The notes below the pieces were generated by a model that saw only the letters and a list, made by a program, of their open reading frames with translations, did no database searches and was not told where the DNA came from. This document shows positions 7,369-9,894 of a stretch of DNA of 22,494 nucleotides, one piece after another (within the stretch, counting starts at the first letter, position 1; each line of letters opens with the position of its first letter). Location: positions 1 to 22,494 of the forward strand of contig JBGPFC010000050.1 of the NCBI GenBank assembly GCA_041483195.1. Reading direction: 5' to 3'. The translations under genes were made by a program, and so were the position numbers. Source of the stretch: Candidatus Eiseniibacteriota bacterium (GTDB lineage Bacteria; Eisenbacteria; RBG-16-71-46).

Positions 7369-8772
7369 TCAATGCGCGGCGCTCACGGCCTCGGCCCCGC
7401 TCAGCTCCTCGAGGCGCGCCGTGAAGTGGCGAAGCATCGGCGCCTCGTAGGTGAGCCTGAGACCGCGCAGCCGCTCGCGCTCGCGATACAGTTGAATGAC
7501 CGATTCCGCGACGTAGCGGATGTGCTCGGTGGTATAGACGCGCCGCGGAATCGCGAGCCGCACCAGCTCGAGCGACGGGTACACCGCCTCGCCCGTCTTC
7601 GGATCGCGATGCCCGAACATGAGGCTGCCGACCTCCACCGCGCGGATGCCGAAGTCGCGATAGAGCGCGACCACCAGCGACTGCCCCGGAAACTGCGACT
7701 GCGGGATGTGCGGCATGAAGCGCTTCGCGTCGATGTACACGGCGTGCCCGCCGGTCGGCTTCACGATCGGCACGCCGGCGGCCGACAGCAGGTCGCCGAG
7801 GTGCGCGACCTGGCCGATGCGGAACGCCAGGTAGTCCTCGTTGAGCACTTCCTTCAGCCCGCGCGCCATGCCCTCGAGATCGCGCCCGGCGAGACCGCCG
7901 TAGGTCGGAAAGCCCTCGACCAGGATCAGGAGGTTGGTGATGCCCTCCGCCCACTCCGCGTTGTTGAGCGCGAGGAAGCCGCCGATGTTCACGAGCCCGT
8001 CCTTCTTGGCGCTCATGGTGCAGCCGTCGCCGTAGGAGAACATCTCGCGCGCGATGTCGGCCACCGATCGGCTCGCGTAGCCGGGCTCGCGCGACTGGAT
8101 GAACCAGCAGTTCTCGGCGAAGCGGCAGGCGTCGAAGATGAGCGGTACGTGGTGGCGGTTGCACACCTCGCGCACCGCGCGCACGTTCGCGATCGAGACC
8201 GGCTGGCCGCCGCCCGAGTTGTTGGTGACGGTGATCATCACCAGCGGCACGCGCTTCGCGCCCAGCTCGTTCAGCGCGCGTTCGAGCTTCACCGGATCGA
8301 GGTTGCCCTTGAACGGGTGGTCGGCGACCGGGTCGAGCCCCTCGTCGATCACCAGGTCGAGCGCCTCGGCGCCCTGGTGCTCGACGTTGGCGCGCGTGGT
8401 GTCGAAGTGGATGTTGTTGGGCACCACGTCGCCGGGCTTGAGGATGGTCGAGAACAGGAGATTTTCGGCCATCCGCCCCTGATGCGTGGGGATCACGTGG
8501 CGATAGCCGAAGATCGAGCGCACGGTTTCGACGAGGTGGAAAAAATTGCGGCTTCCCGCGTAGGACTCGTCGCCCATCATGAGCCCGGCCCACTGGTTGT
8601 CGCTCATCGCGGAGGTGCCGCTGTCGGTGAGGAGATCCACGTAGATGCTGTCCGCGGGGACGGCGAAGATGTTGAGGCCGGCGTCGCGGATCAGTCGCTC
8701 GCGCTCTTCGCGCGAAACGCGGCGCAACGGCTCGACCACCTTGATGCGGAACGGTTCTGCGGGAAATCTCAT
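7369..8772 (-). CDS. tnaA: Tryptophanase (tryptophan indole-lyase), PLP-dependent beta-eliminating lyase
   Basis: EPFRIKVVE, DLLTDSGT, GDESYAGS, PLP-lysine motif MSAKKD, EGFPTYGGLAGRD. C-terminal LRHFTARL has His, as in tryptophanase; tyrosine phenol-lyase has LRFF. Confidence 0.88.
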   Translation of the reverse strand: MRFPAEPFRIKVVEPLRRVSREERERLIRDAGLNIFAVPADSIYVDLLTDSGTSAMSDNQWAGLMMGDESYAGSRNFFHLVETVRSIFGYRHVIPTHQGRMAENLLFSTILKPGDVVPNNIHFDTTRANVEHQGAEALDLVIDEGLDPVADHPFKGNLDPVKLERALNELGAKRVPLVMITVTNNSGGGQPVSIANVRAVREVCNRHHVPLIFDACRFAENCWFIQSREPGYASRSVADIAREMFSYGDGCTMSAKKDGLVNIGGFLALNNAEWAEGITNLLILVEGFPTYGGLAGRDLEGMARGLKEVLNEDYLAFRIGQVAHLGDLLSAAGVPIVKPTGGHAVYIDAKRFMPHIPQSQFPGQSLVVALYRDFGIRAVEVGSLMFGHRDPKTGEAVYPSLELVRLAIPRRVYTTEHIRYVAESVIQLYRERERLRGLRLTYEAPMLRHFTARLEELSGAEAVSAAH

Positions 8773-8781
8773 GACGCACGC

Positions 8782-8810
8782 AGTCTAGCGGGGCGGCATC
8801 GGGCTCACAA
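8782..8810 (-). promoter_or_regulatory. Sigma70-like promoter of tnaA (leaderless or near-leaderless)
   Basis: TTGTGA-N17-TAGACT-N9-ATG, no SD. Confidence 0.55.
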
Positions 8811-8828
8811 GCCGCGCACATTTCTCCA

Positions 8829-8858
8829 TTGCATCCATGGCAGCGCCGCACCTATCCT
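8829..8858 (+). promoter_or_regulatory. Sigma70-like promoter divergent from tnaA, driving the intergenic transcript
   Basis: TTGCAT-N18-TATCCT in an AT-enriched patch. Confidence 0.55.
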
Positions 8859-8864
8859 TTCTGC

Positions 8865-9230
8865 GTCCGGGAGGCCCCCTCCCTTCGTTTGCCGAACGGA
8901 CAGCCCTTCGCGCCGCTCAACCCCCGAAGCACGCGTGCTGCGCTCGTCCGCGGTCCCTGACCGCGGCCGCGCCATTGGCTTTCCGCCGGCAGGCCGACAT
9001 CGCTCGTGCCGTTCGGCGAGCGCAAGTCACTGCGCTGTGGATCACGAAGGCGAGTGTGAGATCGGGGGACTCCCTCGTCGGCGTCGTGAAGCAGCGCAGC
9101 TAGAGGCCGCACTGGGGCGGCGTTGAGGCCGGCGCGATGCTGCGCGCGGACGCAAACCCTCGGTCTTCCGTCCGTGAGCGGAAGGCCTCGCAGGTTCGAG
9201 GAGGGCCGGTGACGACACCGGCCCTCTTTC
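8865..9230 (+). ncRNA. Candidate structured non-coding RNA of unknown class (~365 nt)
   Basis: Own promoter and terminator, no convincing ORF. Helices 8889-8899/9009-9019, 8948-8955/8959-8966, 9030-9037/9092-9099, 9042-9047/9084-9089, 9049-9054/9074-9079, 9162-9170/9179-9187. Confidence 0.5.
9201..9230 (+). terminator. Intrinsic terminator-like hairpin
   Basis: GAGGGCCGGTG-ACGA-CACCGGCCCTC perfect 11-bp stem followed by TTTCAATTC on the + strand. It also abuts the stop codon of the - strand Lon-N gene. Confidence 0.7.
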
Positions 9231-9894
9231 AATTCTGTTCGCCGCCTCCGGGCCGGGGCGGCGTCTCGCGCGCCTGCAAGCGTCGCTCCACCCGCGCGCG
9301 CACCTGGCGGCCGCGCTCGATCACGTTGTCGAGGGTCAGCAGATCGAGCTTCTCCTCGCCCCCGGCTTCGAGGCTCATGCACATGAGGTTCACGAGCGCC
9401 TCGTAGGACAGGTCGGGCCCCGGCGCGCGGGGCGCGGGCTCGCCGGCGAGCGATGAGGCGGCGGCGAGCAGCCGCTGGAACACCTCGCTGGTCGCCTGTC
9501 GCTCGATCTGCACCAGCGGATCGTCTTCGGTGTACGGCTCCTGCGGCAGCACGCGCACCCGCGCCGCGCGGTACGGGTACTCGCGCAGGCGCTGCTCCAA
9601 TCGCACGCGCGCGAGGCCCAGCACGCGCAGGTTGAAGCAATCGTTCGGGAGCCACTCGACTTCCTCGAAGCGCGCGAGGCAGCCCATCGGGAAGTAGTCG
9701 GGGCTGCCCCGGTAGTCGCGCTCCCAGCCCGGCTTCAGCAGCGCGAGCGCGATGACGCGCTCGCCCGACAGCGCGTCGCGCACCATGGTGCGGTAGCGCA
9801 GCTCGAAGACGTGCAGCGGCAGGAGCGTGTGCGGGAAGAGCACCACGCCGGGCAACGGGAACACGGGCACCGCGTGCCGCGGCTCGGACAGCAA
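9229..9894 (-). CDS. LON peptidase substrate-binding (N-terminal) domain protein, stand-alone
   Basis: PVFPLPGVVLFPHTLLPLHVFELRYRTMVRDAL signature; no ATPase or protease domain. Confidence 0.92.
   Translation of the reverse strand: MLSEPRHAVPVFPLPGVVLFPHTLLPLHVFELRYRTMVRDALSGERVIALALLKPGWERDYRGSPDYFPMGCLARFEEVEWLPNDCFNLRVLGLARVRLEQRLREYPYRAARVRVLPQEPYTEDDPLVQIERQATSEVFQRLLAAASSLAGEPAPRAPGPDLSYEALVNLMCMSLEAGGEEKLDLLTLDNVIERGRQVRARVERRLQARETPPRPGGGEQN

Follow-up and report, generated by a model that had tools for sequence, protein, structure and literature searches.

Comparative analysis of a 22,494-nucleotide (nt) stretch of DNA from a Candidatus Eiseniibacteriota bacterium (GenBank assembly GCA_041483195.1, contig JBGPFC010000050.1; this whole stretch is hereafter "the window") supports the reading that positions 8829-9240 of its plus strand form a free-standing gene for a structured noncoding RNA (ncRNA), with a predicted transcript of ~370 nt and a family that lies outside Rfam 15. 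We consider a free-standing ncRNA gene of an uncatalogued family, with a trans-acting regulatory role as its inferred part, to be the best explanation of the locus overall, and give it a probability of roughly 55%. The gene lies in a 456-nt intergenic gap (8773-9228) flanked by two minus-strand genes: it stands back-to-back with a tryptophanase promoter and converges tail-to-tail on a gene whose protein product consists of a Lon N-terminal (Lon-N) domain, on the opposite strand to both. A preliminary description of the locus, which had been made from the window sequence alone, had likewise placed it between two minus-strand genes and had proposed an independently transcribed, structured plus-strand RNA of ~365 nt and of unrecognized class, divergent from tryptophanase. 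Upon rereading the window sequence, we found every sequence feature listed there at its given position, and this central proposal passed every test that we ran.

The evidence that we regard as decisive is comparative: the covariation of a core hairpin, the position of the promoter relative to this core, and the bias of the terminators toward the plus strand. What the window offers by itself goes modestly beyond chance. A comparison of folding energies, which had been suggested as a check, favored the plus strand (−196.8 kcal/mol, z = −3.23), but the minus strand was likewise negative (z = −2.40), and we count this as modest evidence.

A covarying core hairpin with nearly invariant loops

A BLAST search with the gap against 60 relatives revealed two scales of conservation: the full gap aligned within the genus only (at 75% identity over query positions 41-446 in one genome, and over query positions 250-430 in another), and a segment of ~70 nt (9030-9099) aligned at 75 to 87% in ~20 genomes of other genera. 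This segment coincides with an interrupted 70-nt hairpin that had been pointed out from the window sequence, and it proved to be nearly invariant across relatives. In a core alignment of 20 sequences, 95.3% of the cells paired, versus 33 to 52% when the partners were slid by 1 to 3 columns; changes on both sides occurred in 8 of 25 pairs, and RNAalifold returned the same hairpin from the aligned cores.

We built a covariance model (R1) from the core alignment and used it to enlarge the set. A degenerate exact pattern was run over GTDB species, each represented by a single genome, and matched 68 loci; 24 of these passed R1 at 76 to 94 bits, whereas the other 44, from many phyla, failed. Over metagenome contigs, the same pattern gave at least 120 matches, and 37 of the 80 loci that were scored passed. 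The enlarged alignment (A2) holds 64 matches, i.e., 29 genome loci and 35 of the 37 metagenome loci, in 58 distinct rows. Left out were L019 (a decayed copy) from alignment A1, L134 (a chance hit) from the flank sets, and L211 and L149 (contig ends) from A2. Among the 58 distinct cores, 95.9% of the cells paired and compensatory changes were found in 12 of the 25 pairs, values that none of 500 shuffles reached. Covariation, another check that had been proposed at the outset, is hence present in the core at both sample sizes. It is dense in P2, the variable stem between the internal loop and the apical region, where 9 of 10 pairs covary. For the lower P2 of the window's RNA, a register offset by 2 nt (UCACGA/UCGUGA), seen in its minimum-free-energy (MFE) fold, is a better match than the family consensus.

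The cells of the 58-row alignment comprised 1176 Watson-Crick pairs, 200 G-U pairs, 4 A-C combinations, and 55 others. Because the 200 G-U cells would become A-C mismatches on the minus strand, they fix the plus strand as the one on which the RNA is read, an orientation that had earlier been argued from wobbles in the window alone. In sharp distinction to the freely varying stems, the apical loop (~19 nt) and the GGAU/UGAA internal loop were fixed in 53 to 58 of the 58 sequences.

One relative (G012) carries a decayed copy at L019:1498-1572. Its promoter, its invariant loop, and the 5′ half of its core are still present; the GUGAAGCAGCGCA strand, however, has given way to other sequence, so that P1 cannot form. 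The copy scores 27.6 bits (E = 0.0068).

Promoter and terminator

A plus-strand promoter of the form TTGCAT-N18-TATCCT with a start near 8865 had been predicted from the window, and the raw flanks of relatives show the same succession of a T-rich stretch, TTGCAT, 17 to 18 nt, and TAnnnT recurring 5′ of the core. We scanned 61 distinct loci, 54 of them with at least 230 nt upstream, for the pattern TTGnnn-N16-19-TAnnnT. It occurred on the plus strand in 43 of the 54 relatives, ending 122 to 188 nt 5′ of the core model hit, and 11 relatives had no match. Within 300 nt upstream, all 44 plus-strand matches fell 100 to 225 nt from the core and none fell elsewhere on that strand; the background amounted to a single match in 30,416 nt of downstream flanks and to 0.065 per kb genome-wide. 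The spacer measured 17 to 18 nt in 41 of 45 matches, and TTGCAT was the commonest −35 element (14 of 43). This position-specific conservation bears out the predicted promoter, which is of a sigma-70-like type. On the minus strand of the same 54 sequences, 17 of 21 matches clustered 225 to 300 nt upstream of the core. We found no promoter of this type upstream of the genome's own genes for 6S RNA, signal recognition particle (SRP) RNA, ribonuclease P (RNase P) RNA, and transfer-messenger RNA (tmRNA).

The terminator, too, had been assigned to the plus strand. A strict hairpin-plus-T test over up to 220 nt after the core located a plus-strand site in 36 of 57 loci and a minus-strand site in 15 of 57, and in 22 long-form 3′ domains 3 of the 8 pairs of the terminator stem covary (e.g., GC:11/AU:8 and AU:8/CG:8), such that both the strand excess and the stem itself agree with the assignment. 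The terminator ends in the strict test clustered at 28 to 65 nt (12 loci) and at 86 to 162 nt (24 loci) past the core. With a looser test, both transcript ends could be predicted in 19 genome loci, yielding 11 long RNAs (356 to 386 nt) and 8 short ones (232 to 269 nt). In the window, the terminator hairpin abuts the stop codon (9229-9231) of the convergent Lon-N gene. The features of the locus are collected in Table 1.

Table 1. Features in and around the RNA gene (window coordinates).
Feature	Position	Strand	Sequence, basis, or remark
RNA gene including promoter and terminator	8829-9240	+	Sequence and comparative analysis
Predicted transcript, ~370 nt, long form	8865-9235	+	Ends inferred from promoter and terminator
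−35-like element TTGCAT	8829-8834	+	Preceded by T-rich stretch CATTTCTCCA
−10-like element TATCCT	8853-8858	+	18-nt spacer; predicted start ~8865
5′ hairpin GGGAGG-CCC-CCUCCC (GGGAG/CTCCC)	8869-8883	+	First C-rich tract CCCCCUCCC at 8875-8883; sequence, MFE fold
Second C-rich tract CCCCCGA	8921-8927	+	7-nt match to core-loop UCGGGGG; predicted pairing
Hairpin CCGCGGUC-CCU-GACCGCGG (CCGCGGTC/GACCGCGG)	8948-8966	+	Sequence, MFE fold
Local hairpin CGCUCG...CGAGCG	9001-9022	+	Just 5′ of core; MFE fold
Core hairpin, interrupted, 70 nt	9030-9099	+	Covariance-model score 76.3 bits in window
Core P1	9030-9038/9091-9099	+	UGCGCUG(U)/(G)CAGCGCA in alignment
Core internal loop, symmetric 4 × 4, purine-rich	9039-9042/9087-9090	+	GGAU/UGAA; alignment
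Core apical region UGUGAGAUCGGGGGACUCC	9055-9073	+	~19 nt, nearly invariant; family form UGUGRGAUCGGGGGACUCC
3′ hairpin a, GCCGC-ACUGGG-GCGGC	9106-9121	+	Long-form RNAs; 4 pairs, 2 compensatory among 22 sequences
3′ hairpin c, GGUCUUCCG(U)-CCGUGA-(G)CGGAAGGCC (GGTCTTCCG/CGGAAGGCC)	9162-9187	+	Sequence, MFE fold
Intrinsic terminator	9198-9240	+	Stem-loop 9198-9229, core GGGCCGG...CCGGCCC, U-rich tail CAATTCTGTT; scan counts 14 pairs
Tryptophanase-type beta-eliminating lyase	7369-8772	−	PF01212, 273.8 bits; NCBIfam tryptophanase subfamily NF009709, 683 bits (cut-off 285)
221-aa protein, Lon N-terminal substrate-binding domain	9229-9894	−	PF02190, 104.7 bits

Absence from the known RNA classes

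Scanning the whole window with the 4227 models of Rfam 15 gave no match at gathering thresholds. At E ≤ 10, the region 8700-9350 gave six weak matches of 13.9 to 18.5 bits (thresholds 36 to 45), most of which fell within the terminator; the conserved core loop was left uncovered by all six. The novelty that had been left to an Rfam search hence stands at both levels of confidence. The genome carries its SRP RNA (RF00169; C44:16002-16100, 81.4 bits) and its only 6S match (RF00013; C5:48550-48742, 67.5 bits) elsewhere, as well as an RNase P RNA on C9 (RF00010, 263.3 bits) and a tmRNA on C11 (RF00023, 175.3 bits), all above the cut-offs, and ARAGORN detected no tRNA or tmRNA in the window. That no hallmark motifs of RNase P RNA, SRP RNA, tmRNA, or tRNA had been seen in the window sequence is in line with these results. 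Our search of the literature, by listings and abstract openings, returned no description of RNAs from Candidatus Eisenbacteria, and the loop 12-mer entered as text gave unrelated matches.

The 5′ and 3′ domains

The 5′ domains (~120 to 185 nt) are C-rich and G-poor (C 38%, G 31%) and resist alignment across genera. When four full-length RNAs were aligned at the genus level, the 8948-8966 hairpin, the 9001-9022 hairpin, the core, and the terminator were kept, several of them with compensatory changes. The first of these had been listed among the window's helices, and within the genus it stands, with both-side changes in 4 of 5 pairs (columns 104-108/114-118 of the four-sequence alignment). The 9001-9022 hairpin is kept with compensatory changes in L002, L003, and L210 (columns 155-161/170-176) and competes with a long-range closure: the complementary segments TTGCCGAACGG (8889-8899) and CCGTTCGGCGA (9009-9019), whose match includes one T-G, had been thought to close a multibranch domain. 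This closure is not supported, as the relatives form local hairpins there instead. A second long-range pairing, between TGCGTCCG (8862-8869) and the complementary CGGACGCA (9147-9154), is uncertain: it is kept within the genus only, with a compensatory change in one relative and a shifted register in two others, and of its eight 5′ bases, three precede the predicted start. For the same four sequences, RNAalifold instead predicted that the 5′ domain forms long-range helices with the segment immediately following the core, and that the 5′ hairpin does so with the surroundings of hairpin c. In genus-level relatives, the 5′ hairpin takes the form GAGG...CCUC with a C/U-rich loop, and its GCCCC loop, for which a pseudoknot with GGGGC (9114-9118) had been suggested from the window sequence, is not conserved as such; we treat this pseudoknot as an uncertain candidate. 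The segment 8869-8892 on the plus strand, i.e., this hairpin followed by TTCGTTTGCC, was also scored as terminator-like by the scan.

The 5′ domains share C-rich tracts. Runs of at least four C's occurred in 39 of 43 domains versus G4 in 9 of 43, and C5 in 28 versus G5 in 4; among 21 domains, CCCCCG (13), UCCCCC, and CCCCUC were each present in 11 to 13, and their reverse complements in none. A U preceded 52 of 86 C-runs, although ~26% of all bases other than C are U. Of 19 folded RNAs, 10 had one or more C-runs predicted to be ≥80% unpaired; the tracts vary in position and number. The CGGGGGAC loop of the core is complementary to these (G)UCCCC(CG) tracts: the longest match averaged 6.7 nt, compared to 5.9 ± 0.2 in shuffles, and the true orientation won over a reversed-motif control in 27 sequences, lost in 7, and tied in 10. 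These comparisons are suggestive of a pairing between the loop and the C-tracts.

On the 3′ side of the core, family members carry 0 to 3 further hairpins before the terminator. A MAFFT alignment of 22 3′ domains resolved hairpin a and the terminator only (L001, which the terminator heuristic had missed, was added by hand; L008, L199, and L170, which has the same 3′ segment as L210, were left out). The 3′ half of hairpin a has an alternative pairing with the 5′ domain that is predicted within the genus, and a candidate long-range helix, 5′(CUUCGCGCCGC..CCC) with 3′(GGGGCGGCG..GAGG), competes with the local hairpin. For hairpin c, which the sequence alignment did not resolve, inspection by eye suggested that relatives keep a stem around a CYGYGA loop with differing stem sequences.

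Distribution and synteny

Of the 89 family genomes, 32 gave one strong copy with the core model; they include 16 of the 44 genomes of high quality and represent 20 of the 28 genera. A genome search with the locus gave one copy in the host. Across 151 sampled genomes of the phylum, 24 of the 59 from this family carried the RNA, and the 91 from 16 other families yielded only one weak match (28.8 bits); these model scans scored a few dozen first-look candidates per genome, so that misses are possible. As far as searched, the RNA is thus confined to one bacterial family. At the syntenic locus of 5 genomes that lack the RNA, a model search without filters gave 16.3 bits (E = 0.026) at best, and no match was accepted. 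In the three of these with a clear next gene, the gap after the Lon-N gene measured 42, 100, and 184 nt, versus 456 nt here. The public records of the 24 matching species mostly bear the title Candidatus Eisenbacteria; three have other labels but belong to the same family by placement. These three are metagenome-assembled genome records titled Saccharimonadaceae, Limnocylindria, and Udaeobacter (L109, L128, and L131), which carry the RNA with scores as in the window's family; their titles are probably wrong.

At 24 loci with long flanks, both neighbors lie on the opposite strand to the RNA without exception. The Lon-N gene is found downstream in 22, with a peroxiredoxin gene beyond it in 20 of these 22; on the upstream side, 18 loci have tryptophanase and the remaining 6 a metal-dependent hydrolase. 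The tryptophanase is 83 to 91% identical between genera, compared to 38 to 79% for the adjacent Lon-N protein and 49 to 76% for a BamA segment, an unusually high degree of conservation for this enzyme within the family. In the window, the tryptophanase gene has a promoter-like site of its own on the minus strand, TTGTGA (8805-8810)-N17-TAGACT (8782-8787), whose −10 element ends 9 nt before the ATG at 8772 and so implies an almost leaderless mRNA. The same spacing of a −10 element (TAGACT or TATTCT), 9 nt, and ATG is visible in relatives L004, L005, and L021.

Possible functions of the RNA

By analogy with known small RNAs (sRNAs), we propose that the RNA may act in trans as a regulator, a role to which we give about one chance in three. 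The UCCCC/CCCUCC tracts, if exposed, would base-pair with mRNA sequences that are rich in G and resemble Shine-Dalgarno elements, i.e., with ribosome-binding regions. The invariant hairpin would either dock a conserved partner or lock the C-tracts internally; in the latter case, the CGGGGGAC loop would pair with the (G)UCCCC(CG) tracts.

Several observations weigh against the overall explanation, or against its regulatory part. The pattern used for enlargement fixed 19 bases (the loop and the 3′ strand of P1), so that the invariance there is partly selected in the 58-sequence set; the BLAST-collected cores, which are free of this bias, show the same invariance. The A2 alignment was fitted to the model. 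The sequences are related, so that the counts overstate independence. A scanner for consensus promoters gave 0 sites in the window, because TTGCAT/TATCCT matches 7 of the 12 consensus positions and the threshold is 9. C-runs of 4 to 5 are not rare in DNA with 38% C. With presence in only 32 of 89 family genomes, the RNA is dispensable or replaced in many lineages. We found no Hfq gene in the host genome, which is 96.8% complete. A search of the window's own genome with the invariant loop gave no conserved target. It returned 12 sites with up to 4 mismatches to the complement of the 19-mer, one of which is the RNA gene itself. The best of the others, 16 nt with one G-U, lies inside the bamA coding region (G000:C24:62434-62449, minus strand). 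We rejected it as a chance match: although only ~0.05 such sites are expected by chance (an estimate), the site is not kept, with runs of just 6 to 11 in 21 relatives (30 orthologous loci were checked, 8 of which were not located).

A bolder proposal, which we put forward tentatively, is that the RNA represents a new class of mid-size RNAs peculiar to the uncultured Eisenbacteria and is no ordinary base-pairing sRNA. The 19-nt loop, the tandem G-A internal loop, and a pseudoknot between loop and C-tract would together form a fixed three-dimensional module that binds a conserved cellular partner or has catalytic activity; the RNA would then be a ribonucleoprotein or a ribozyme of a new type. 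A link between such a module and the stand-alone Lon-N protein encoded tail-to-tail at 22 of 24 loci is possible.

The strongest rival to trans-acting regulation by base pairing is a protein-binding RNA, in the manner of 6S, CsrB/RsmZ, or Y RNA, in which the apical loop and the tandem G-A internal loop bind a conserved protein that is sequestered or scaffolded, and the variable 5′ and 3′ domains are accessory. Loops that stay fixed beside freely varying stems, at loci where the Lon-N protein is only 38 to 79% identical, are the pattern expected of a recognition surface and not of a simple seed. The conserved tail-to-tail Lon-N neighbor fits this picture as well, yet the Lon-N gene was retained in all 5 RNA-less genomes that we checked. 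CsrA might have seemed an apt partner, since its gene is present and both invariant loops contain GGA. However, CsrA occurs in 83 of the 89 family genomes with or without the RNA, and the 132 GGA motifs in 19 RNAs (105.6 ± 8.7 in shuffles) include 38 that are the two invariant copies; with CsrA presence independent of the RNA and GGA not enriched beyond these copies, we discarded the CsrA link as uninformative. On balance, we regard a protein-binding role as a serious candidate that is nonetheless unlikely.

A catalytic or ligand-sensing RNA (a ribozyme, or a trans sensor akin to a riboswitch) is improbable. Its invariant nucleotides would make up an active site or pocket, perhaps with a pseudoknot of the G5 loop and a C-run, which would suit both the strict invariance of unpaired nucleotides beside freely covarying stems and the complementarity of loop and 5′ tract, suggestive of a tertiary contact. 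Set against this, no Rfam ribozyme or riboswitch matched at E ≤ 10, there is no same-strand gene downstream to control, and nothing indicates a cleavage site or a ligand.

Judging from the sequence layout, the RNA is not cis-regulatory, because its neighbors are encoded on the other strand, a terminator closes it off, and it stays in place when either neighbor changes. A cis-acting element of the flanking genes (for tryptophanase a 5′ leader or riboswitch, for the Lon-N gene a 3′ untranslated region or terminator, or else an antisense RNA or insulator against read-through) would account for the fixed position between the same two genes, for the terminator hairpin abutting the Lon-N stop codon, and for the 15 of 57 relatives with a terminator-like site on the minus strand. 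It is nevertheless very improbable: the G-U pairs of the core would be lost on that strand, the promoter-like site of tryptophanase leaves no room for a leader, and the RNA is kept with a hydrolase in place of tryptophanase (6 of 24 loci) and without an adjacent Lon-N gene (2 of 24).

Least probable of all is a small protein-coding gene or chance pairing in a GC-rich spacer, for which one can cite an 88-codon plus-strand open reading frame (ORF; 8837-9103), the negative minus-strand z, and one minus-strand core frame that is open in 61 of 61 sequences, but against which the ORFs of the gap have no Pfam match, the conserved block differs by 1 to 4 nt in length (71, 72, 73, 74, and 75 nt in 1, 6, 11, 37, and 6 sequences, lengths that rule out any conserved reading frame), the substitutions compensate one another across helices and show no three-base periodicity, and the core is kept across genera whose other intergenic DNA cannot be aligned. 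The codon-type conservation of a small ORF that had been named as an observation against the ncRNA call is accordingly absent.

Significance

Candidatus Eisenbacteria have no cultured member, and the present data add to what can be read from their genomes an RNA family that has its own promoter and terminator, a stem that covaries, and a loop of unusual rigidity. Gene callers missed it in at least 32 of 89 species-level genomes and at least 37 metagenome contigs. The 43 aligned promoters come from a phylum without a described promoter consensus. The 70-nt module is compact enough for biochemistry, both for its binding partner and for its structure, and the contrast of presence and absence among sister genera can be used to seek a partner or pathway.

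Comparison with known RNAs

Like 6S RNA, the RNA described here is encoded by a mid-size free-standing gene, contains a long irregular hairpin with conserved internal loops, and may bind a protein; unlike 6S RNA, it lacks a large central bubble and spans 230 to 390 nt with extra domains, and no 6S match appeared at E ≤ 10. With SRP RNA, it shares a hairpin with a symmetric, purine-rich internal loop, whose 3′ strand GAAGCAGC we take to resemble the strand of SRP domain IV. Its apical region, however, is a conserved 19-nt loop and not a GNRA tetraloop, and there is no Rfam match. The sponges CsrB and RsmZ come to mind for the GGA in two invariant loops and the CsrA gene in the genome, whereas the present RNA has only these two conserved GGA sites and no enrichment elsewhere.

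Staphylococcal RNAIII and RsaE or "UCCC motif" sRNAs are base-pairing sRNAs with C-rich loops. By analogy, the present RNA would resemble them in its own promoter and terminator, in its several hairpins, and in repeated U-C4 tracts that are often predicted to be unpaired and could mask G-rich ribosome-binding sites, in a genome where we found no Hfq gene. It differs in that we see no similarity in sequence or model, in that its most conserved part is a G-rich loop and not the C-tracts, and in its host, an uncultured lineage unrelated to Bacillota.

A further parallel is offered by orphan structured RNAs from comparative genomics, such as the raiA motif (ModT), OLE, ROOL, and HEARO (see PMC8632094, PMC11109978, and PMC11706538). 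Such RNAs likewise combine covariation with conserved unpaired nucleotides, are restricted to certain lineages, and have neighboring genes that do not reveal their function. The present RNA matches none of them in the Rfam scans, has a narrower spread (one family), and is smaller than OLE, ROOL, and GOLLD. In general kind this new RNA family is a familiar one, and what sets it apart is its unusually rigid conserved module.

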